DNA of 64,000 nt from a virus (lineage: Duplodnaviria > Caudoviricetes). The translations under genes and the position numbers were made by a program. Below the pieces are notes generated by a model that searched no databases, was not told where the DNA came from, and saw nothing but the letters and a program-made list of their open reading frames with translations. The stretch lies in IMG/VR virus record IMGVR_UViG_3300011008_000028; one strand, given 5' to 3'. Below, piece after piece: positions 7,102 to 55,568 of the stretch; within the stretch, counting starts at the first letter, position 1, and each line of letters opens with the position of its first letter.

Positions 7102-7955
7102 ACGGGGAACGTGAACATATTTTGCTTGCGAACATCGGACACAACTTCCATGAATATCTTCTGATGTTCTATTATTTCATCAACACAATCGATGACACAT
7201 GTTCCATCCGGATATATAACTCCTCCGAAAAGAGACTCTATATAAAACCTGTCAAAAATTGAAACATTGGTGAAGCTCGACTGATCTACCCGGAGGAATG
7301 GCTGGTTTAGGCGGTATATCAACTTCTGGAATGTTTGTCTCAAGTAATAGTCGGGATTACGGATATAATAATCATTAGCAACATCATTCTTCCAGAAATA
7401 GTATGTCCAGATTAAAACATTTGGGATACCGACCGCGCCTGAAGTCCTGTTACACATGAAACTGATGTACTCGATCAGGTCATCTGTGAATGTCGTCAAA
7501 TGTTTTGGGGATTCATGGTTGTAATTCTGAAGGAAGAATAAACCTTCGGTAGCCAAGCGGGTTAGATCGTATGCAAAGCAGTAACTCATCTCAGATGAAG
7601 AAAATGCATCATGCATATAGAATGATCCATTCCACTCTGCTTCCAACCATTCCCTCGCAGTTTTAAGTCCGTATATCTTCTTAATATCATGAAAGATCTT
7701 ATTGAATGCAAACATCTTATCATGAGGCTTACCTTTCTCAGATATTAAAGATCTTACATCCTTATGTGATGCATTTGCATTGGCATCAATGGTTACATCA
7801 GCGACATTCTTGTCAATGAATCCGTTGATGAAATCGGAAAAGTTTAGGTTTGATTCATGGAGACCGTTCAGATATTCAAATCCTTCACCATATCGTATCT
7901 GAAGATTGGTAAGGGTTAATTCAAAATCCCGACAGGTTTTAATCGGAATATTCAT
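7102..7955 (-). CDS. nrdD: Class III ribonucleoside-triphosphate reductase, exon 1
   Basis: YMHD..SYC, TSGAVG, LNQP, QSSFTNVS, MFTFPV; no ATP-cone evident. Confidence 0.92.
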
Positions 7956-7979: not shown

Positions 7980-8303
7980 TTAATATGAATCTCTTACTCG
8001 ATATCTCCATTCAAAGGTGTGATATAGCCAGTTATCAACATATTGGAACGACACCGTTCTCCAGCTGACACCGTGCTCTTCCTCATCCTGATCATCGAGT
8101 ATTCGTTCAATGAGCGCTTTCACCATTTCTTCCGCTTCTTCCTTTGAAGTCTTGGTAGATGTATAGAATACATATCCTGGGTACTCACTGGACGTTGGCC
8201 GGAGTCTGTCATAATAGATAGTAATACCGTTTATGTCAACTTCCAGTCGGAGCGGAATTGGATTTCCGGGTTTATATACTTTTGGCGTTATTGTATATTC
8301 CAT
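7980..8303 (-). CDS. Hypothetical protein
   Basis: ORF track, AAGGAG SD, inside RNR operon. Confidence 0.75.
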   Translation of the reverse strand: MEYTITPKVYKPGNPIPLRLEVDINGITIYYDRLRPTSSEYPGYVFYTSTKTSKEEAEEMVKALIERILDDQDEEEHGVSWRTVSFQYVDNWLYHTFEWRYRVRDSY

Positions 8304-8315
8304 TTTATGACTCCT

Positions 8316-8516
8316 TCAGAAGGTGTTTATATATGCAGCTGCTTCGGTGAAGGACATGATTGGTCCATCATCCTCCTGCAGCATCGGTACTGTAGAGATT
8401 CCGAGTTCCTGCATCTTATCAGTGTCATTGCACTCGGTATAGTCAATGCCTTTCTGATCAAGCTTCATCTTAAGAACCTTGCACTTGGGGCATCCTGTAG
8501 AATATAATGTAAGCAT
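8316..8516 (-). CDS. Glutaredoxin/NrdH-like redoxin
   Basis: LYSTGCPKC, TVPML cis-Pro motif, 66 aa. Confidence 0.85.
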   Translation of the reverse strand: MLTLYSTGCPKCKVLKMKLDQKGIDYTECNDTDKMQELGISTVPMLQEDDGPIMSFTEAAAYINTF

Positions 8517-8533
8517 TGTAATTTTCTCCTTTC

Positions 8534-8872
8534 TTATATATCTCCCTCGGCTCTGTGCAGCGATCTTTCAGCTTCGAAGCCCTGAGGAAATCTTGCCTTC
8601 AGCTTGTCAATGTTCATTTGCATGATATCATCCATTGTGCAACCAATGTAGTCACATGCTTCCGCAATGAACCAGAGTACATCACCGAGCTCTATCTTCA
8701 GATGATCCGTATCAAGATCATGGCCCTGATAGATCTTCTGAACCAACCCGGTGCATTCACCTGCTTCTGATGCGAGACCGCATACAGCATGGATGAGTTC
8801 ATCACGTGTACGTACTTTGTCTTTAAATACAGAAGTCACCATTGCCAACTTCTGATATTCAGTTCCTGTCAT
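8534..8872 (-). CDS. MazG-like NTP pyrophosphohydrolase
   Basis: GLASEAGE...ELGDVLWF...NIDKLKARFP. Confidence 0.88.
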   Translation of the reverse strand: MTGTEYQKLAMVTSVFKDKVRTRDELIHAVCGLASEAGECTGLVQKIYQGHDLDTDHLKIELGDVLWFIAEACDYIGCTMDDIMQMNIDKLKARFPQGFEAERSLHRAEGDI

Positions 8873-9062
8873 ATCTGTATTCCTCCTGATAAATAAGATT
8901 TAGTATCTCAATTGTTTTGAGCCTACTAGTAAGATATATCATTTCAATTTGAAATGGAGTTACAATATTGGAAAATCAAAAATTTGAATTCAATTTTCAC
9001 ATACAATGTCAAAAAAATGAATAAAAGAAAGCGGGGTTTATTACCCGCTTTCTGGTGATTAA

Positions 9063-9260
9063 TTATTCAACTTCATTCTCGCTTTCGTAAATCGTGATAT
9101 ATCTGATTGCTGTTTTGAATATCAGTCGTTCACAATTATCGACACATTGTACCACGTAGTACAACGGTGATTCGTCAACAACATTGCCGTCGATAGTATC
9201 GAATCCCGTACCCCTTAGCATCTTGATATGGACATATTTACCCTGTAATCTGTCATCCAT
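9063..9260 (-). CDS. Hypothetical small protein (possible Sm/Hfq-like beta fold)
   Basis: ORF track; LQGKYVHI...IDGNVVD...LIFKTAIRYI resembles an Sm-like pattern (weak). Confidence 0.55.
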   Translation of the reverse strand: MDDRLQGKYVHIKMLRGTGFDTIDGNVVDESPLYYVVQCVDNCERLIFKTAIRYITIYESENEVE

Positions 9261-16673: not shown

Positions 16674-18089
16674 TTACTCTTCCTCCCCCATCTTATTTAA
16701 TTTATCCTCGGCCTTACCAATGAGCTTCTTGAACTTTGGATTCCGATTGAGTTTCGTTATACGTTGTAACAGACTTGACTCAATTTTACGGTTCTCCTTT
16801 TGTTTCTTCTTTATTGTGGCTCGTTTGTCGGCTTCGGATGTCATATTCATCTGTTGTCTAAGATGAGTAACATTCATACCCTGTTCTTCCATCATCTTGA
16901 ATACATCCTGGAATTCAAGATCCCCATATGTTAGAACACCCCCAGGGGCAGCAGTCTCCAACATCTTCTCCCTCATAATGAGATCATAGATAAAGAGGGC
17001 GTTCTTGTCGGTCCAAGAAGCATCAAAGTGAATATCATCAAACGGGTTCTTGATTCTCTTGGGTGGTTCAAACATAGAGTGAGTGAGTAGCGTGGATCTA
17101 TTCAGTTGAATATCAGAATCATGATTCTTCGGATTCGACTGAATCTTCATCAATATGTCATGGAGATTGTCACGGACATATTTCTTTCTCTTGGAGAGTT
17201 TCCGTTTCTTCTTGGAACGGAATCGGTGGTACTTGTTCCCTTCATAACCCTTCAGTTCAGATCGTTTGAACTCCTTGACGTAAATGTCTTCTGGATGCTC
17301 TTCATGATCAAGAATGTATTGGACTTCTTCAGGGGAGAGAAGCCTCTTCATTGCTTCTTCATCATCTTCCTCGGGTTCATCCCATCCATCATCCATATAC
17401 CATGCATTCTCTTCCTGTTTCTCCTGCGAGAGAAGATCCGAGGGATCCAGGTCTGGGTTGGATATATACTGTATCAGGAGATCTTTGTTATAACGATCCA
17501 TATGCCGCAGTTTCGGTATCGGGATACGGTTGTGATATATTCGGCCATCGGAGATCATCTTCCAGAACTCTTCATCGGAATGGAGATAGTTCTCTTTCTT
17601 CTCCAGCAATTCCCATGCCTCGACCACAATCCTCATTGCCAGGACATACTTGTCTACTTGGCCATAGGTAGTCTTAAGCCCAGACAGCTTGGTTGCAATC
17701 TCATTCAGGGAATCAAGCTTTGCCCTTTCTTCGTCCGAGATATGATAAATGTCCTGCTCGGAATAATCATGCACCAGGCAATATCGACATGACTCTCGGA
17801 TCTGTTCTAACTCGGCTTCCGTGTATTTGTGTTCACGAACCTCCGTATACCTTTTAAAGTGAAGATACTCTTCAAACTCATCAGGTCTTCTAGCAATTCC
17901 CGATGATGAGGGATTCTCTTCTTCCTGCATCTTTGCGATTTCCTTACTGGTGACGAATGTTTCCGCATCTTCATCATCTTCCTCAAAAGTACGGCGATGA
18001 TATTTTGCTCCGGTGTATTCGCCGGTATCAGGGTCAAATCCGGAACTTTCCATCATCTCTTGGTACTTTTCAAATATGGTCTTGCCCAT
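16674..18089 (-). CDS. Hypothetical highly charged protein
   Basis: ORF track; start MGKT after GAGGAGG; TATATTAT motif at 18121-18128. Confidence 0.8.
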   Translation of the reverse strand: MGKTIFEKYQEMMESSGFDPDTGEYTGAKYHRRTFEEDDEDAETFVTSKEIAKMQEEENPSSSGIARRPDEFEEYLHFKRYTEVREHKYTEAELEQIRESCRYCLVHDYSEQDIYHISDEERAKLDSLNEIATKLSGLKTTYGQVDKYVLAMRIVVEAWELLEKKENYLHSDEEFWKMISDGRIYHNRIPIPKLRHMDRYNKDLLIQYISNPDLDPSDLLSQEKQEENAWYMDDGWDEPEEDDEEAMKRLLSPEEVQYILDHEEHPEDIYVKEFKRSELKGYEGNKYHRFRSKKKRKLSKRKKYVRDNLHDILMKIQSNPKNHDSDIQLNRSTLLTHSMFEPPKRIKNPFDDIHFDASWTDKNALFIYDLIMREKMLETAAPGGVLTYGDLEFQDVFKMMEEQGMNVTHLRQQMNMTSEADKRATIKKKQKENRKIESSLLQRITKLNRNPKFKKLIGKAEDKLNKMGEEE

Positions 18090-18120
18090 AATAAGCCTCC
18101 TCTCATATAGCTTCAAGTTA

Positions 18121-18128
18121 ATAATATA
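18121..18128 (-). promoter_or_regulatory. Phage early-type promoter motif TATATTAT (representative minus-strand copy)
   Basis: Same motif, oriented toward the downstream gene, at 2624, 18121, 23697, 31071, 34374 and 40140. Confidence 0.7.
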
Positions 18129-18194
18129 TATCTAAGAAATGTGTATAAACTATCAAACGAAATAATCCATCAGGCTAATTGTACCCTATAAAAG

Positions 18195-18305
18195 TCGGCG
18201 GGCGCTATTCGGTGGTGACTCGGGTCACGGTGCTGGGGATGGTGCATTCAGTTGCTACCTGAATGGTACTGTGTCTTTTTCCTACTGGTATTTTGGCGCC
18301 CGACT
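18195..18305 (+). repeat. DGR variable-repeat-like cassette, copy 1 (intergenic, no upstream start)
   Basis: 95/111 identical to 45475-45585. Translates RRALFGGDSGHGAGDGAFSCYLNGTVSFSYWYFGARL. In-frame TAA at 18163-18165 and no ATG before the repeat. Confidence 0.85.
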
Positions 18306-18330
18306 TTTAGGAATTCATAAAAGGTCCCAA

Positions 18331-18370
18331 ACACCACACATCCGCCCAGACACGGGCGGATGTGTGGTGT
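18331..18370. terminator. 17-bp-stem hairpin: terminator of the convergent gene and/or DGR-type target hairpin
   Basis: acaccacacatccgccc-agacac-gggcggatgtgtggtgt, 25 nt after cassette copy 1. Confidence 0.7.
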
Positions 18371-18384
18371 GTTTATTGGGCAGA

Positions 18385-20937
18385 TTAAGTTGTCGGGTTC
18401 GCTTGCTGCTGAGAATTAACTCTCATACCCCATGCTTGCTGAATGTATTTGTATTCAGTGCGGAGCATTCCTGTAATGATCGGAATCATCGGGTTGTAGA
18501 GATCATTAATCGCCTGCTGAGTTGTATTAAGAACATTCTGTGAAGCGGTGTACATAGCCGTATCCTGCTCATGCTTCTTCTGAGCTTCTTCACCCTTTTT
18601 CTTTTCCTCTTCTGTCTGATTATCACTAACAGAAGGTGGCTGTTCAGTTTGCTGATCAGGTTTCAGGGAAACAACCTTATTCTTCAGCGATTGCATAGCC
18701 GCAGTAATATCATCGTTCATCTTCTTACATTCTTCATATGTTGTCATCGAAGCGGAAACATCATTAAGCCATTTCTCTACAAGAGTTTTATCAACGACCT
18801 TCTCTCCTGCAGGAATATCGCCAGCGGAAGGATTTCCGAAAAGAACCCAGTTCTGGAAAGCTTTGGGGTTCCAATCTTTAGATGCCCCATATGTGGATGA
18901 ATACAATCTGTCGTCTATACCTTCATACAGAGTCTTTCTGTATTCTTCAAGTCCACCTTCTTTAGTAGCTTTACCCAGATCACAATTGGTGATTGCTGCA
19001 ATCAATTTGTCAAGATGAGTTCCTTTGTTGTACTTATAATCAAAACACTGGATACTTCCATTGAATGTTGCCGAGGTCAGTGCATCTTTGTTCTTCTGAC
19101 ACCAATTAACGGCAGCTTTGAACTGCTGATTGGTGAAGAACTCATCCCACTTCTTCTTGATCCCCTGAAGAAGAGCAAGAATTTTGTTGATTATATCCTG
19201 GAAGGAGAATGCCTCAGAGTAATACCAATCGTCCGCCATCCCCGGTATTGTCTTGACATATTCATCATACATGTTAAGACGGTCCATCTCACTCATCAGA
19301 GAGATTACATCTGCAGCCTCAACAAAGGATCTGTTCGTATCAGGAATAGCAGACATGGTATTGATATTGCTATCATAATCACTCTTTAGAGTTCCGGGGA
19401 TCTTGATGCTTATCTCTTCTATTGCGGACTTGAAATTAGCACGTCTGAGATCATTGATCTTCATCTCAATGTCTCTGCACTTTGACAGTACAGCAACGCC
19501 TGCCGTCTTATATATCTCACTGAGTATAAATCTCATATCATTCATATACTTTAACGTGAGCGTGTTTTTCTGGTTACCAATATCAATCACAGAGTTGGAT
19601 AAGCGACGGTATATGTCAGTGATCTTGTACGCAAATAGCGTGTATGCATATATCATATCACATGCCAGCTGTTCGTAGCCCGCGACAGTATCATCCCGTT
19701 CTCCCTTGCTGTTTACAGGAGTGATATTCTTAATCACCTCGATGAGTTCAAGTAACGGGGAAGTGCTATTGCCGGTACCAAGATTCTTCGATGTGATGAA
19801 GTCTTTGAGGTTACGGAGAACCTTCTCTGGGGCAGCATCGTTGATATTGTCATCGTAGAATGCACGTATTATTGATTCGCTCATATTGGAATCAAAGATG
19901 AAGTTGTATAACGAATTCAGACTTAGCTTTGCATAGACCTTATTCTCTGCGGCCAACTTTGCGAGCTCGTTATCACTATGCCAAGTATCTCTGATGGCTT
20001 TAAGTGTAGGAATATTACCTACAGTAGTAAATGACATCAGCCACTCCGTTACCTTCTCGAGATAGTCATCGTAGTTGAATGGATCGAATATGATAGAATC
20101 GTCAATGTCCTTCATGTATGTTATTTCAGAAAGAGCCACCGCATCCGCAGCCTCGGTCACACATTCATCTTTAGTTGTAGTTCTGGGATCAACGAAGTCT
20201 CTGGCATATACTGTAATTGCATATGCCCTGCATGCGAAGGCAATCATTGTTGTCTTAACATACTCGATTATCCAGTTGCATGCTGAAGCCCTCATCTGTC
20301 CATTGAAGTACGTATACTCCTTGCTCGTCGGGTTAAGAATCACATCTGTAAGATATTCAACCGACTTCTCGATGGACTTGTATATCTCGATACGGTCGTT
20401 GTTATCAAACATATTCTTATTCTTAATGGACTTGAAGAGAGCTTTCTCCTTGTCATCGGCTTTCTGGATGTTGAATGTCATTACTTCATTCACCATCATG
20501 CCGGCATCTGCTGGTCTATCCTTGAATGCATTTCTGCATGTTATTGCAAAGAAATCGGCATACTTCGAATCCTTGGTAATGTCGGTATTCTTTGCGCCAC
20601 GGACAACCCCGTCTGTAAATTGCAGTACGGATGCATAGTCGTATGCAGCAAATATAAATGGCTTTACTCGATCATATTCAACCGAGTATGCGGTATCCAT
20701 CTTATCAGGGTTGGAATTCTGAATAGCCTTCTGAAGTTCTTTGCCGTAAGATTCCCAAGAACGCACGAACGAGTTCACACTTCCCAGGAACGTTCTTACC
20801 TTATAATCATCAACGGAGCCATTGGCTGCGGATGAACGGAATACATCGATCTTAAACTTGGTACATATTTCCGATATGCCAGTTACAGATGCCCTGAATT
20901 CTTCAGCTTTCATCGGAACGGTAAATTTGTTTATCAT
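18385..20937 (-). CDS. Probable virion (internal head) protein
   Basis: 850 aa; VTEA, FVEA, YSEA motifs resemble prohead-protease cleavage sites; late-promoter-like motif 20974-20985. Confidence 0.55.
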   Translation of the reverse strand: MINKFTVPMKAEEFRASVTGISEICTKFKIDVFRSSAANGSVDDYKVRTFLGSVNSFVRSWESYGKELQKAIQNSNPDKMDTAYSVEYDRVKPFIFAAYDYASVLQFTDGVVRGAKNTDITKDSKYADFFAITCRNAFKDRPADAGMMVNEVMTFNIQKADDKEKALFKSIKNKNMFDNNDRIEIYKSIEKSVEYLTDVILNPTSKEYTYFNGQMRASACNWIIEYVKTTMIAFACRAYAITVYARDFVDPRTTTKDECVTEAADAVALSEITYMKDIDDSIIFDPFNYDDYLEKVTEWLMSFTTVGNIPTLKAIRDTWHSDNELAKLAAENKVYAKLSLNSLYNFIFDSNMSESIIRAFYDDNINDAAPEKVLRNLKDFITSKNLGTGNSTSPLLELIEVIKNITPVNSKGERDDTVAGYEQLACDMIYAYTLFAYKITDIYRRLSNSVIDIGNQKNTLTLKYMNDMRFILSEIYKTAGVAVLSKCRDIEMKINDLRRANFKSAIEEISIKIPGTLKSDYDSNINTMSAIPDTNRSFVEAADVISLMSEMDRLNMYDEYVKTIPGMADDWYYSEAFSFQDIINKILALLQGIKKKWDEFFTNQQFKAAVNWCQKNKDALTSATFNGSIQCFDYKYNKGTHLDKLIAAITNCDLGKATKEGGLEEYRKTLYEGIDDRLYSSTYGASKDWNPKAFQNWVLFGNPSAGDIPAGEKVVDKTLVEKWLNDVSASMTTYEECKKMNDDITAAMQSLKNKVVSLKPDQQTEQPPSVSDNQTEEEKKKGEEAQKKHEQDTAMYTASQNVLNTTQQAINDLYNPMIPIITGMLRTEYKYIQQAWGMRVNSQQQANPTT

Positions 20938-21047
20938 ACAAATACATCTCCTTATAATGAATTTATTATGAGTTACACCTTGGTCAAGTCATATGTTACA
21001 TGAATAATAATCTTCACGCAATCAATATTAAAGGGACGGTGGATCAA

Positions 21048-21800
21048 ATGAAAATATATAGATGTATGTACTGTGCTTATAGCGCAATCCCCAATAAGAA
21101 TAAAAAGGGGATTCACTCTGCTAAATATATGATGGGTAAACATTATGAAACCAAACACAAGTCTATGCTTCCTCCAGATATGGACGGATATAGATTCTTT
21201 TACTGGAGTATTACTGGGAAGCAGAATGGAAGTTGCGTAATGTGTAAGTCACCTACGGATTTCAATTATGTGACCATGAAGTATTCCAGGTTTTGTAATA
21301 GCCCAGCATGCAAGCAGAAATACAAGGAAGAACGAGATCGTCGAATGATAGCCAAGTATGGGAAGGTGTATCTATTAGATGATCCGATCATGCAACAGAA
21401 GATGTTACAGGGACGGAAGATATCCGGAACTTATACTTGGTCGGATGGGGTGACCAAGTTCCCGTATGTGGGATCATATGAGCAGGATTTCCTTAGGCAT
21501 ATGGACAAAGACCTTCACTGGCCAGTTGGCGATTTGATCATGCCTAGTCCTCATACATACACATACAAGTTCAAGAATGAAGATCACTTCTATATTCCTG
21601 ATGCATTTATACCTAGCATGAACTGTGAGATTGAGATGAAATCCACAGTTCGACATGAAAAGCAAAACAATCCCGATTCCCGGGAAAAAGAGAAAATAAA
21701 AGATGAATTAATGAAATCATGTAGTAACATAATAAATTACGTTAAGATCGACGATAAGAACTATTCCGAGTTCGACGCACTTATTCAAAAGGAGGAATAA
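21048..21800 (+). CDS. Zn-finger plus PD-(D/E)xK (TnsA-like) endonuclease
   Basis: CMYC..H...H, CVMC..C...C, then GSYEQDF...YIPDAF...EIEMKS. Confidence 0.65.
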   Translation: MKIYRCMYCAYSAIPNKNKKGIHSAKYMMGKHYETKHKSMLPPDMDGYRFFYWSITGKQNGSCVMCKSPTDFNYVTMKYSRFCNSPACKQKYKEERDRRMIAKYGKVYLLDDPIMQQKMLQGRKISGTYTWSDGVTKFPYVGSYEQDFLRHMDKDLHWPVGDLIMPSPHTYTYKFKNEDHFYIPDAFIPSMNCEIEMKSTVRHEKQNNPDSREKEKIKDELMKSCSNIINYVKIDDKNYSEFDALIQKEE

Positions 21801-21803
21801 GCC

Positions 21804-22010
21804 ATGATACACGACCTAAGTCAGTACTATATCGACTTTTCCAATCGGACTAATCTTACCGACAGTGAGAAAACTTACCTCGAGAATATTCAGAATTCAT
21901 ACAGACCGATTGAAAGAGTCGAGTTCTTAACTGAGTATCTCCTGATGGCGAAGATCACCAATGATGATTTCATAACCATGACTGGTGTTCCATACGAAGC
22001 AAATCAGTGA
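21804..22010 (+). CDS. Hypothetical protein
   Basis: ORF track, AAGGAGG SD, followed by hairpin 22041-22067. Confidence 0.7.
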   Translation: MIHDLSQYYIDFSNRTNLTDSEKTYLENIQNSYRPIERVEFLTEYLLMAKITNDDFITMTGVPYEANQ

Positions 22011-45453: not shown

Positions 45454-45474
45454 TCATATGCTTCTCTTAAGAAA

Positions 45475-45585
45475 TCGGCGGGCGCTATTCGGTGGTCACT
45501 CGTATCACGGTGCTTCAGATGGTGCATTCTATTGCGACCTGACTGGTACTGTGTCTGGTTCCAACTGGAATATTGGCGCCCGCCT
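45475..45585 (+). repeat. DGR variable-repeat-like cassette, copy 2 (inside a possible 68-aa mini-ORF 45458-45664)
   Basis: Translates RRALFGGHSYHGASDGAFYCDLTGTVSGSNWNIGARL(SLKP); followed by hairpin acatccc-attc-gggatgt (45630-45647); ATG 45458 has no SD. Confidence 0.85.
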
Positions 45586-50143: not shown

Positions 50144-50794
50144 ATGAATATACTTGAAATGATCGAATGGAAACCATTCAACCTTGAAACTGCTCCGAAG
50201 AATCACACTCTGATACTTCGCAATGTAGCAGATCATCTGGATATTACCATGGTGATTTACAATGCCCAAACAGGAAAGTTTGCCATCATGAACGCTAACC
50301 CGATCTCTGAAGTTAGCGAGGAGATGTATGACAAGGGACTCATTCTGGTCGACCATGATAAGTTCGAAAACTCGGAGTATTTTACAGTTCAGGATCTCTC
50401 TCAGCAGGATGCGTCGATCGTCACCAGCGCTGCGTTACTGGATCTGACTGCCATGTCACCAATTTTCTACCCGAGGTTCGATCACAAGAACGCCAAAGAG
50501 TTCGTCTCAAAGAATATCATGATTCCCACTGTTCAGCCGTTTTTCTCCGTCTTTAACAGTGCAATGATGATCGAGGATATTGCGAACTCGACAATGGTTA
50601 GTAAGACGAAGGTATCTGGATCGGATATCGTGTCTTTCTATGATACCATGGATCATGCCAAGAACATGAAGATGTTTGCACTGGTATCCATGCACAGAGA
50701 GTGGATCGCTGTTCAGGATAAGGATGAACTTCTCGATGAAACATATGAGAAGATGGTTGCCAATGGTGCATTTGATGATGAGGAGGAAGAATAA
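50144..50794 (+). CDS. Hypothetical protein at head of NAD cluster
   Basis: AGGAGG SD; stop overlaps pncA start (TAATG). Confidence 0.75.
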   Translation: MNILEMIEWKPFNLETAPKNHTLILRNVADHLDITMVIYNAQTGKFAIMNANPISEVSEEMYDKGLILVDHDKFENSEYFTVQDLSQQDASIVTSAALLDLTAMSPIFYPRFDHKNAKEFVSKNIMIPTVQPFFSVFNSAMMIEDIANSTMVSKTKVSGSDIVSFYDTMDHAKNMKMFALVSMHREWIAVQDKDELLDETYEKMVANGAFDDEEEE

Positions 50795-51405
50795 TGAAAA
50801 AGAAATTACTAATTGTAATCGATATGCAGAAAGACTTTGTCGATGGAAGTCTTGGAAGTAGGCAGGCACAGGCAATCGTTCCTCGCGTACAGGAACTGAT
50901 TGATTCTGATGAGTTTGACATTACTCTCTTTACCAGAGATACTCACAATGAAGACTACTTGGACAATACTCTCGAAGGCAAGATGCTCCCAGTTAAGCAC
51001 TGCATCTATGAGACAGATGGTTGGCAGCTGGTTGTTAAACCCAAGATCGAAGAGTACAATGGTCTGTCGGCTATCATCGACAAGTACACGTTCGGCTCTA
51101 CGAATCTTGTACCAACAATCATTGAGGCAATATCCAATTTCGAGAGTACCTATAGGCTCACGATTCCGGATATCGCCAAAGAATTCATCGATACTATTAC
51201 GATTGTCGGGCTGTGTACCGACATCTGTGTTATCTCCAATGCACTTCTTCTGAGAGCCGAATTCCCTGATACAAGAATCATCTGTGATGCGTCGGCATGT
51301 GCTGGTGTTACACCTCATCGTCATGAGTGCGCTCTGGAAGTTATGAGAAGTTGTCAGATCGAAGTAATCAACGCATGCCCTGATATGCCCAATGAGAAGG
51401 AGTAA
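50794..51405 (+). CDS. pncA: Nicotinamidase (isochorismatase family)
   Basis: VIDMQKDF, RDTH, KHC, DKYTF, GLCTDICV: Asp-Lys-Cys triad plus metal ligands. Confidence 0.9.
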   Translation: MKKKLLIVIDMQKDFVDGSLGSRQAQAIVPRVQELIDSDEFDITLFTRDTHNEDYLDNTLEGKMLPVKHCIYETDGWQLVVKPKIEEYNGLSAIIDKYTFGSTNLVPTIIEAISNFESTYRLTIPDIAKEFIDTITIVGLCTDICVISNALLLRAEFPDTRIICDASACAGVTPHRHECALEVMRSCQIEVINACPDMPNEKE

Positions 51406-52644
51406 ATGATGTTTATTTTGGAGAAGATAGATCACAAGCTTCCGAGAATCATCAATAGCCTGTTGGAGACAGACATGTATAAGTTCTCCATGGGACAGGC
51501 GATATATCACCAGTTCTCGGATTACAAAACCACATGGACATTCAAATGCAGGAATCAGGATGTCCACTTTACAGAAGAGATGGTTGAGGAGATCAAGAAT
51601 CAGATTAAGCTGTATTGCGAACTGCAGTTTACCGAGGAAGAGCTCCAGTACCTGAACAACATCAAATGGATCAAAGGATCATATGTGGACTTCCTCCGGC
51701 TGTGGAGACCTCGGTTCGAAGACTTCGAAATATCATCTGATTCCGCCTGCGGACTTTCCATTGAGACCAAGGGAACTTGGCTAAATACTTCTATGTATGA
51801 GATCCCTACATTGGCGATCGTCAATGAGGTGTATTTCAAAATGCAATACGATTATCAGATGCTTCTGAAGAGCTTCCAACAGAAGCTGGACGAAAAGTGT
51901 GAATGGATTCACAAGGGAACCATCTACCCTGGCACATTCTCCGAGTTCGGTCTAAGAAGAAGACTGTCTGGAGATGCACAGGAATTGGCCGTCAAGCAGC
52001 TATCGGAAACCAGACTCTGTTCCGGCAAGTTCGTCGGTACATCCAATGTCTATCTGGCAAAGAAGTATAACCTGACTCCCGTAGGAACAATGGCTCATGA
52101 ATGGTGCATGTGTGTAGGCCAAGGCAACCATAAGCACAACCCTGCATATTCCAACTGGTATGCTCTGGATGCCTGGGTTAAAGAATATGGAGTCCTGAAT
52201 GGAATTGCATTAACAGATGCAATCACAACTGACTGCTTCCTGAAGGACTTCAGACTTACATATGCTACCCTCTTCTCAGGCGTAAGGCATGATTCTGGTG
52301 ATCCTTATGAGTGGGGCGAAAAGATGATCAAACACTACGAGTCGCTCGGAATCAATCCGAAAACAAAGACTCTGTTGTTCAGTGATTCTCTCGACTTCCA
52401 TAGAGCAGACAAGCTCTTCCGTCACTTCTGTGAATACACAAACGTTGCATTCGGCATTGGAACATATCTTTCAAATGATACCGATGTTGCCCCGCTTAAT
52501 ATCGTTATGAAGACAACGATGTGCAACGGAATGGATGTAGCCAAGATCTCGGATACCGAAGGTAAAGGAATGTGTAAGAATCCAGAGTACGTTGAGTATC
52601 TGAAGAGATGTATAGATTGGAGAATGAGTCATGAAGCCAGGTAG
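51406..52644 (+). CDS. pncB: Nicotinate phosphoribosyltransferase
   Basis: ETDMYKFSM, SEFGLRRR, GTSN, GTMAHEW, GVRHDSGDP, FSDSL, FGIGT, AKISD. Confidence 0.93.
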   Translation: MMFILEKIDHKLPRIINSLLETDMYKFSMGQAIYHQFSDYKTTWTFKCRNQDVHFTEEMVEEIKNQIKLYCELQFTEEELQYLNNIKWIKGSYVDFLRLWRPRFEDFEISSDSACGLSIETKGTWLNTSMYEIPTLAIVNEVYFKMQYDYQMLLKSFQQKLDEKCEWIHKGTIYPGTFSEFGLRRRLSGDAQELAVKQLSETRLCSGKFVGTSNVYLAKKYNLTPVGTMAHEWCMCVGQGNHKHNPAYSNWYALDAWVKEYGVLNGIALTDAITTDCFLKDFRLTYATLFSGVRHDSGDPYEWGEKMIKHYESLGINPKTKTLLFSDSLDFHRADKLFRHFCEYTNVAFGIGTYLSNDTDVAPLNIVMKTTMCNGMDVAKISDTEGKGMCKNPEYVEYLKRCIDWRMSHEAR

Positions 52645-53233
52645 AGTTATACTAATTCCTGGGACATTCAATCCACCTACAAACGCCCATATCGCAATGA
52701 GTCAGGAATTACATAAAGTATTTCCCGGAAGTAAAATTGTGTATGTTCCCTGTAATGATAACTACACAGTGGAATACAAGAAGCAACAGGGATGTATCAA
52801 GATGGAAGACCGTGTTCGGCTGTTGTATGGATGTATTAATCAGAAATATTCGTATGTGTCGATATTTGAAGCCAATGCTGATCCATACGGATACCTTATA
52901 GATACTGCCCGGTATTATCATTCCATCTATGATGATGTCGCAATCTGTCTGGGTGATGACAATCTTAAACATTTCGATACATGGAAAGATGCTGAAGCAC
53001 TGATTCAGGAGAATATGATTGTATATTTCCATAGAGCCGGCTATTGTGGCAACTTCTGTAAATTAATACAAGATCATCACTGGCAGTGTATTTCAGTTCC
53101 TGGGGTTATTCCAAACATCTCATCCACGAAAATACGTCAAGCGTATCTAGATGGGAACTGGGATCTGATAATCCAGAATGTTCCGGAAAACGTATTCTTG
53201 TATCTTCGTTACACAGATGGCCTCTTTGAGTGA
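52631..53233 (+). CDS. nadD: Nicotinate-nucleotide adenylyltransferase
   Basis: GTFNPPTNAH, LGDDNL..FDTW, ISSTKIR. Confidence 0.88.
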   Translation: MKPGRVILIPGTFNPPTNAHIAMSQELHKVFPGSKIVYVPCNDNYTVEYKKQQGCIKMEDRVRLLYGCINQKYSYVSIFEANADPYGYLIDTARYYHSIYDDVAICLGDDNLKHFDTWKDAEALIQENMIVYFHRAGYCGNFCKLIQDHHWQCISVPGVIPNISSTKIRQAYLDGNWDLIIQNVPENVFLYLRYTDGLFE

Positions 53234-53241
53234 TATGAAAA

Positions 53242-53267
53242 CAGATGGGCAGGATCCTGCCCATCTG
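53242..53267 (+). terminator. Palindromic hairpin between nadD and nadE
   Basis: cagatgggcaggatcctgcccatctg followed by agttattttt. Confidence 0.65.
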
Positions 53268-53294
53268 AGTTATTTTTATAAAGGAGAATTCAAA

Positions 53295-54128
53295 ATGGAA
53301 TATGATGTCAAAGATTATACCCGATGGATCATCGAATGGATCCAGGGCTGGTTCAATGTTAATGGCAAAGGTTGTAATGCCATAGTCGGAATATCCGGCG
53401 GTAAGGACAGCACGATTGTTGCCAAACTTTGTTGTGAAGCTCTCGGTGAAGATCGTGTCAGCGGTGTGTTAATTCCGATGGATATGGAACCTGACCCGAT
53501 TGCATATCGCGTAATCCAGTATCTTGGGATTCATTATACCACGATCATAATCGGTCAAGCATATAAGTCCATCATTGATCAGATCTATTCGTTTGGCGAT
53601 CGAGTTTATATACATAAAGATCTCGTGACTCGACAGATTAATGAGGAACCATCCGCTGCAACCAAGATCAATCTCCCGGCTAGATTGAGAATGGCTGTGT
53701 TATATGCACATGCCCAATCCAATAACGGGCGTGTTGCAAATACATGCAACTTCTCCGAAGACTATGTTGGCTACTCTACCAGATACGGTGATAGTGTTGG
53801 TGACTTCAGCCCTATCTCAAACTTCACCGTTACTGAAGTCAAAGAGATTGGCAGGTATCTTGGAATTCCGAACGAATTCATCGATAGACCTCCAGAAGAT
53901 GGTCTATGCGGGAAAACGGATGAGGACAATCTTGGGTTCACATATGATATGCTGGATAAGTATATCACCGAGGGTATCCTTCCCCCTCCCGAGATCAAGG
54001 AGAAAATCGATCGTCTTCATAAGCAGAATCTATTCAAGCTCAAACTAATGGAGTCCTGTCCGAACCCATTCGTCAAGAGAGCAGCTCTTGATGAACTAAA
54101 GGAGGAGAGCCCAGTTGACAGAGTTTAA
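53295..54128 (+). CDS. nadE: NH3-dependent NAD synthetase
   Basis: GISGGKDS, NLPARLRMAVLY, GYSTRYGD, PEDGL..KTDEDNLG; no glutaminase domain; start after AAAGGAG. Confidence 0.93.
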   Translation: MEYDVKDYTRWIIEWIQGWFNVNGKGCNAIVGISGGKDSTIVAKLCCEALGEDRVSGVLIPMDMEPDPIAYRVIQYLGIHYTTIIIGQAYKSIIDQIYSFGDRVYIHKDLVTRQINEEPSAATKINLPARLRMAVLYAHAQSNNGRVANTCNFSEDYVGYSTRYGDSVGDFSPISNFTVTEVKEIGRYLGIPNEFIDRPPEDGLCGKTDEDNLGFTYDMLDKYITEGILPPPEIKEKIDRLHKQNLFKLKLMESCPNPFVKRAALDELKEESPVDRV

Positions 54129-55068: not shown

Positions 55069-55568
55069 GTGAATCCTCCCTCTCATAAGGAATAAGGAAC
55101 TTCTCAAAATCATTGGGGTGGACGACCTAAGCCCGCCTCTTGATTTTTGTTCATAAATCACATCATTAGGAATCTGTCTAATCATTTCAACATTTTACGA
55201 TCGAATTCTGGAATGTGCACATCTCCCCAGATTTCTTTCATTGTGTTGTATAACATTTCTGGAGTAACCCGGGTTGTCGATATTACATCCTTCCCGACTA
55301 TCTTGCCCATGACATTGGTCCTGTATACCTCGATTATGCATCCACCTTTGAATACAACATAGTATTCAGATTGAAGCAACTCTCCTGAGTTTCACAGTTA
55401 TCCAACTACCATCTGAATTGACATCCCATTGATCAGGATCAAGTCTACCCATGAGTTCGTAAACATTGTTCAATGCATCCGTGTTAATTTTCATATTGGA
55501 ATTCCTCCCGCATATTTTTTGTTATGGAACAGTAAGAACATCCCCCGGAATGATTCCGGGGGATGTGA

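Follow-up and report, generated by a model that had tools for sequence, protein, structure and literature searches.

A probable DGR-derived variable repeat without a gene between a terminator and a promoter of a phage

What is a variable repeat doing in phage DNA through which no gene can be read? DGRs are defined by their diversification of the 3′ ends of protein genes, and survey pipelines seek variable repeats (VRs) inside coding sequences. VRs have been described within coding sequence (PMC8144416, PMC5758913, PMC6642488, PMC4143802, PMC4372165), and our search of the DGR literature, which was not exhaustive, returned no description of gene-less VR cassettes. What is very probably a non-coding, DGR-derived repeat of this kind lies at 18192-18305, on the plus strand, of a 64,000-nt stretch of phage DNA (IMG/VR record IMGVR_UViG_3300011008_000028; hereafter the window, to which all coordinates refer unless a contig is named).

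The cassette and its surroundings

The repeat, here called copy 1, takes up 114 nt of the 295-nt spacer between two neighbouring minus-strand genes and is antisense to both; its core, homologous to the TR of the DGR described below, spans about 18210-18300. On one side lies an 850-aa gene (18385-20937, with its stop at 18385) and on the other a 471-aa gene (16674-18089) with an RBS, its ATG at 18089 and a promoter motif upstream. Both are without an assigned function, and a Pfam search of the two neighbours and of the tail protein targeted by the DGR found no family. Elsewhere in the window (50144-54128, together with L002:18309-20591), adjacent genes match NAPRTase, CTP_transf_like (NadD-like) and NAD synthase, which looks like a phage NAD salvage block.

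The initial annotation had described copy 1 as untranslatable, and this is borne out by its reading frame (RRALFGG...GARL). A plus-strand TAA at 18163-18165 closes the frame upstream, the first ATG, GTG or TTG after this stop is a GTG at 18271, within the repeat itself, and no GGAGG-like or other Shine-Dalgarno-like site is present between the TAA and the repeat. Downstream, the frame remains open as far as 18543, antisense to the 850-aa gene. An upstream ORF hidden by an assembly or frameshift error, which had been named as a possible refutation, was not found: the 321 nt from 18080 to 18400 are identical in ENA contig ERZ3810914 NODE_13, as are the 663 nt from 18083 to 18745 in a contig of JGI 3300010998. 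Because the stretch is base-for-base the same in the ENA and JGI contigs, such an error is very unlikely.

The divergent promoter proposed for this spacer is likewise present. Its core, TATATTAT, lies on the minus strand at 18128-18121 as part of the motif ATATATTATTAA, drives the 471-aa gene and points away from the cassette. It matches a recurrent phage motif, ATATATTAT, of which the window holds 18 occurrences, some dozen of which immediately precede gene starts in the correct orientation (contexts read by eye). In the form ATATATTAT(T/A)AA, the motif precedes many gene starts, on either strand, by some 15-40 nt, for example at 2631(-), 23704(-), 34381(-), 45691(+) and 59260(+), with some sites abutting the ATG; it may serve an RNA polymerase of the phage itself as a promoter. 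No occurrence of the phage motif was found on the plus strand ahead of copy 1. The upstream sequence TATAAAAG was considered as a plus-strand promoter for copy 1 and rejected, as it differs from ATATATTAT.

Comparison with relatives places the cassette more precisely. Outside this phage, the 471-aa protein has its closest relatives at 61-64% identity; one relative, Logan contig L027, has the same gene order, with a DUF7487-like gene followed by 856-aa, 474-aa and RNase H genes. In L027, the gap between the two orthologues is 103 nt long and holds a stop, a 15-bp hairpin, the promoter motif ATATATTATTAA, an RBS and an ATG, and no cassette. Copy 1 sits exactly between the equivalents of the L027 hairpin and promoter motif. 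Since the L027 gap contains only stop, hairpin and promoter, the cassette is a lineage-specific insertion. No relatives of the 850-aa protein were found in viral_contigs, a short ENA contig with a 158-aa fragment of the 471-aa protein stops short of the cassette region, and a megablast of 17000-22000 against GenBank phage records gave no match. When the locus was examined for MITE-like features, a possible direct repeat, ATAAAAG(G)TC (18188-18197 and 18317-18327), was noted, which is imperfect and AT-rich, and no transposase could be linked to copy 1. Two smaller features of the surrounding DNA are a local palindrome between cassette and hairpin (18304-18323, CTTTTAGGAA / TTCATAAAAG, centred on GAATTC) and three occurrences of TAAAAG around copy 1, at 18189, 18304 (inverted) and 18318.

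A distant DGR and adenine-specific differences

The window is collinear with NODE_13, as established by exact-protein look-ups (record coordinate = window coordinate + 54428), and a walk along this contig reached a DGR about 73 kb from copy 1, on the opposite strand. Its reverse transcriptase (RT; 369 aa, minus strand, window-equivalent 90818-91927) matches RVT_1 (E = 1e-21) and phrog_1423 (E = 5e-99) and contains YMDD; by the same walk, the TR lies at window-equivalent ~92.2 kb. The RT is therefore encoded on the same contig as the window sequence, and it starts 235 nt past the TR. The complete arrangement can be read from JGI contig L009, where a 545-aa tail protein (phrog_5302, E = 7e-89) ends in the expressed VR (7240-7343), followed by the TR (7731-7821) between the expressed VR and the RT (8056-9165). 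A position within the 3′ end of a protein-coding gene is thus true of the expressed VR only, not of copy 1.

DGR RTs are expected to carry an (I/L)GxxxSQ motif, and the RT shows LGFYTSH at the site of this signature. Against NCBIfam, which holds no DGR-specific model, it matched generic RT families only, below their cut-offs. In the search for an accessory variability determinant (Avd), two small ORFs on the flanks of the DGR, of 121 aa and 82 aa, had no Pfam or NCBIfam match, and a PDB sequence search with the C-terminus of the target gave none either. Two further observations concern the DGR locus itself. First, of the tail genes in L020 (~1506-1620; G001) and L009 (7200-7345; G002), one lacks 33 nt relative to the other, in-frame, at the 5′ edge of the VR, which could be population heterogeneity or an assembly effect. 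Second, a 15-nt perfect inverted match connects a site upstream of the TR (L009:7607-7621) with the middle of the TR (7771-7785) and may be part of a DGR RNA structure.

With the TR located, the proposal of the initial annotation that copy 1 is a mutagenised DGR repeat can be judged directly, and it stands. Within the homology, copy 1 differs from the TR at 16 positions, and all 16 fall on TR adenines (P = 7e-10); in other words, 16 of the 27 adenines of the TR are changed, with zero differences across ~64 non-A positions. Such a pattern marks copy 1 as a genuine DGR-written repeat, albeit one with no gene. The same pattern recurs in a sister gene-less repeat, copy 2, in which 12/12 differences are at TR adenines (P = 6e-07), and in a gene-less copy in G001 (23 kb), with 17/17 (P = 1e-10); further gene-less copies were taken from IMG/VR contigs of the same phage and aligned to the TR.

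The edges of the homology are informative about descent. All VR-type copies, including copy 1, carry GCGCTATT 5′ of the TR homology and CG 3′ of GGCGCC, both of which the TR lacks. Because these features are common to the VR copies and absent from the TR, the cassettes descend from VR DNA and not from TR cDNA alone. The content of copy 1 as a whole is unique among the repeats. At 7/9 jointly mutated sites, copy 1 and the expressed VR have the same non-A base (nominal P = 0.008, uncorrected for 10 comparisons), which hints that part of this content may have been inherited rather than freshly drawn.

Related DGRs provide a wider frame. In two long relatives whose RTs are related, one a 120-kb contig and the other a complete genome of 76 kb, there is only the TR with one VR; the third and closest relative has a single extra copy, located inside a tail gene. 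The presence of related DGR phages without gene-less extra copies indicates that the cassettes are specific to the lineage of this phage. In the closest relative (L115:1-1590, G005; L032), whose RT is 58% identical, the tail target gene lies 8.6 kb from the TR and is inverted, so that a remote target does occur in this RT lineage.

Hairpin, bracketing repeat and sister cassettes

The initial annotation had pointed to a perfect 17-bp stem after copy 1, and this is present at 18331-18347 / 18354-18370 with the 6-nt loop AGACAC. As ssDNA, the hairpin has a predicted stability of -25.7 kcal/mol (z = -7.7); it starts ~21-30 nt after copy 1 and lies 14 nt past the stop of the 850-aa gene. A terminator scan scored it as terminator-like on the plus strand, with a T-rich tail, while on the minus strand, the 850-aa gene's own, a T tract appears only after TTGGGACC. 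We regard it as most likely the intrinsic terminator of the 850-aa gene, one that is possibly bidirectional. Its counterpart at the same position in the cassette-free L027 indicates that this terminator pre-existed the insertion.

A further reading, in which the hairpin is a DGR recognition element, gained no support apart from a weak proximity statistic (below). DGR target hairpins have 7-10 bp GC-rich stems and 4-nt GRNA loops and are found 4-34 bp past the VR, and in BPP-1, enlargement of the loop by 2 nt nearly abolished homing (PMC3240598). The hairpin after copy 1 fits this canon in spacing alone, as neither its 17-bp stem nor its AGACAC loop matches; moreover, it lies 14 nt past a gene stop and is also found where there is no cassette. 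The hexamer pair ACATCC...GGATGT, which had been noticed in the hairpins after both copies, is indeed in both (at 18338 and 45630), but proved not to be cassette-specific, because a third such hairpin with an 11-bp GC-rich stem (55538-55566) lies in intergenic DNA with no cassette nearby. Three hairpins of this type in the window, with 0.32 expected, suggest a family of related phage terminators.

Could terminator hairpins nevertheless double as DGR landing signals? In a proximity test for perfect GC-rich hairpins of >=8 bp starting 10-65 nt downstream, which is crude and uses a naive null, 8.6% of the position-orientation combinations in the phage's cassette-free intergenic DNA have such a hairpin. 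A strong hairpin 10-65 nt past the 3′ end was found for 3/5 gene-less cassettes with a readable 3′ side (binomial P ~0.006). With so tiny a sample, this is only suggestive of a double use, and selection for safe sites between terminators and promoters could give the same proximity.

Copy 1, in contrast to the expressed VR, is also bracketed by an inverted repeat of its own, with a left arm, TAAAAGTCGG (18189-18198, plus strand), and a right arm, CCGACTTTTA (18300-18309, plus strand), that form a 10-nt perfect match. The bracket is extended by CGGGCGC after the left arm, which pairs with GCGCCCG at the 3′ end. The right arm takes the place of the VR-type 3′ flank CGCCTCTCCCTGAAACCGACCGC that is present in the expressed VR and copy 2: copy 1 retains the VR-type GGCGCC and CG, and at least the next 20 nt of the expressed VR and copy 2 are replaced by a sequence that begins with ACTTTTAGG. 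The IMH-like VR-type 3′ flank is therefore almost wholly absent from copy 1. In predicted ssDNA folds, the VR is closed as a large loop in the cassettes of copy 1 (z = -3.1) and copy 2 (z = -5.2), whereas it is not in the expressed VR (z = -1.3). The 5′ flanks of other cassettes are imperfect inverted copies of the canonical 3′ flank GCGCCCGCCTCTCCC. The bracketing repeat may be read in three ways: it could be a trace of cassette origin, e.g. of snap-back priming at GGCGCC, itself a palindrome; it could mark a palindromic insertion site; or it could be a selected structure.

Copy 2 (45472-45585, plus strand) is bracketed by GGCGGGCGC / GCGCCCGCC and is 85% identical to copy 1 without gaps. The two have opposite orientations relative to their neighbour genes, and both share a flank, TCGGCGGGCGC, that is absent from the expressed VR. 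The possibility that one of them served as the template of the other was ruled out, since, on whichever strand they are read, neither carries A at every position where they differ. The copy 2 peptide was also sought within longer proteins, with no match.

Among the remaining cassettes, two have an identical 58-nt leader and different VR contents, one content being that of the expressed VR and the other that of a third cassette. The same leader with different contents implies that content was replaced after duplication of a cassette locus; the cassette that has the content of the expressed VR behind the cassette-type leader sits at a contig end. The leader itself (L022:1440-1510, L017:1440-1510) combines a near-consensus promoter, TATATCAT, with the GC-rich VR end copied in inverted orientation, CCGGGCGCC. 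One-sided truncation affects several of the sister cassettes. None of the cassettes contains a stop codon.

Four contigs from several assemblies begin or end within a VR copy, i.e. NODE_13 (L010:1-38), L011:1-82, G001:118613-118713 and G002:2-107; the VR repeat family breaks assemblies and further copies may be hidden. Database searches with the repeat returned little: an exact 22-mer had no match in viral_contigs, an A-masked VR pattern had none in metagenome_contigs (the pattern does work on fetched loci), and in viral_contigs the same pattern matched DGR-side contigs only, the copy 1 locus not being among them. A look-up by sequence likewise turned up nothing similar in other genomes.

Origin of the cassette and comparison with known systems

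How did a DGR-written repeat come to lie between a terminator and a promoter? We lean, with modest confidence, towards copy 1 being a gene-less VR copy that has been written by the DGR and rewritten in place by homing. Its sequence would have been written by error-prone reverse transcription specific to TR adenines, and TR-derived cDNA from the distant RT would replace the cassette in trans, making use of the GC-rich 3′ end that the cassette has kept, TTGGCGCCCG, and of CGGTGGT as homology on the 5′ side. Homing would thereby have occurred at the copy 1 site itself rather than before copying, and the cassette would be a target that diversifies without any expression from it. The hairpin would remain the neighbour's pre-existing terminator, at most co-opted as a DNA hairpin that aids DGR homing. 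Several observations speak against homing in place, namely the mostly missing IMH-like flank, the non-canonical hairpin, the truncated sisters, the shared content and the LGFYTSH of the RT. Invariance of copy 1 between assemblies cannot be added to this list with any weight: copy 1 is identical in three assemblies, but the expressed VR shows no variation in the same series of samples either, so that the comparison of assemblies has no power on in-place rewriting.

The main competitor, which we consider somewhat unlikely, is that copy 1 is a frozen snapshot, i.e. a DNA or retro-copy of an earlier expressed VR or of another cassette, which brought along the adenine substitutions of its time and was never itself a homing target. 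A copying event of this kind would fit the truncated IMH-like 3′ flank of copy 1 and the one-sided truncation of other cassettes, the 7/9 jointly mutated states that copy 1 has in common with the expressed VR, and the invariance of copy 1 just mentioned. It would also fit the His codon (CAC) found at the fourth variable codon in 4/5 distinct contents, as if these had once been protein-selected. Yet, the cassette-specific flanks (TCGGCGGGCGC for copies 1 and 2, the 58-nt leader for two others) argue that the cassettes are not fresh copies of the gene, and cassettes with the same leader and different contents require replacement after duplication. Copy 1 itself has no non-adenine differences over the ~64 non-A positions of the TR, which further speaks against a frozen copy.

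Neisseria pilS is a silent-cassette variation system comparable to Borrelia vls, and the repeats could in principle form such an archive, a library of receptor-binding variants exchanged with the tail gene by gene conversion. One contig-end cassette does have exactly the expressed-VR content behind a cassette-type leader, one content is common to two cassettes at different loci, the content of copy 1 partly matches that of the expressed VR, and all cassettes are free of stop codons. However, one key case lies at a contig end, and the homology arms of copy 1 are very short (15 nt 5′, ~10 nt 3′). Truncated members point to decay over maintenance, and the two long relatives with only the TR and one VR indicate that cassettes are not conserved in this RT lineage. 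On balance, we find an archive quite improbable as the explanation of copy 1. Rather unlikely, too, is a broader picture in which the cassettes would be a scattered silent VR library, closed by inverted repeats, with 3′ ends facing terminator hairpins, written by the DGR in trans and exchanging with the tail gene; if true, it would combine hypermutation with a cassette archive and provide a memory for receptor-binding variants.

Far less credible is a structured noncoding RNA or antisense regulator, in which cassette and stem would be transcribed, either as a plus-strand transcript ending at the hairpin or by antisense read-through from the 850-aa gene, and would act on the TR RNA or the tail-gene mRNA. 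The plus-strand terminator score of the hairpin with its T-rich tail and the pairing of the cassette ends, which closes the VR as a loop, would suit such an RNA. The phage promoter motif is absent upstream on the plus strand, though, Rfam families matched the locus only at chance level and on the hairpin itself, and copies 1 and 2 are oppositely oriented relative to their neighbour genes. Finally, there is practically no chance that a target ORF is masked by misassembly, by a frameshift or by an alternative genetic code. No point in favour was found, three assemblies agree, the upstream DNA belongs to the promoter and start of a gene on the other strand, the neighbours are just 295 nt apart and read normally under table 11, and the blocking codon is TAA.

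Gene-less, adenine-mutagenised repeats matter under either of two options. If homing needs only a minimal DNA target and works far away on non-coding DNA, the cassettes set a lower bound on target requirements, which would be useful for DGR engineering; otherwise, the phage may store or recycle variants of the tip of its receptor-binding protein. Within the family, copy 1 is pared down the furthest, with no VR-type 3′ flank and a borrowed terminator as the sole nearby hairpin, and this makes it a natural deletion mutant with which to explore the requirements of a DGR target.

The obvious reference is the mtd VR of BPP-1 with its IMH and hairpin/cruciform (PMC3240598). Here as there, differences occur at TR adenines only, the point of TR-VR divergence is a GC-rich 3′ end, the VR end has an inverted repeat inside the reported range of 4-34 bp, and RT and TR are encoded together. 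Unlike the BPP-1 VR, copy 1 has no ORF, lies ~73 kb away from the TR in inverted orientation, has almost lost the VR-type 3′ flank and is closed by its own inverted repeat; its hairpin serves an unrelated gene as terminator and has 17 bp in the stem and a 6-nt loop that is not GRNA. A second reference is multi-target DGRs with dispersed VRs, such as that of Trichodesmium erythraeum, in which 12 VRs derive from one TR, all at the 3′ ends of protein genes (PMC4143802). One TR and many scattered repeats are common to both systems, and some of the Trichodesmium repeats look degenerate, with mutated 3′ homology regions, much like the cassettes described here (PMC4143802); in contrast to that system, the scattered copies of this phage are gene-less.

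Silent-cassette systems offer a different parallel. As in Borrelia vls (PMC11499132), the cassettes are promoterless partial copies of the variable part of an expressed surface or adhesion gene, and there are signs of content common to silent copies and the expression site. Unlike in vls and pilS, diversity is written here by an RT, the copies are single and scattered rather than arrayed, and conversion into the expressed gene is putative. The choice of site, in turn, recalls group IIC introns, whose insertion sites adjoin intrinsic terminator hairpins (PMC3240598): group II intron RTs and DGR RTs are related, and in both cases a retroelement-derived sequence comes to rest beside a terminator stem-loop, in a safe intergenic spot. 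Copy 1 differs from these introns in that it has neither an intron RNA nor an intron-encoded protein and lies, in its own sense, 5′ of the hairpin.
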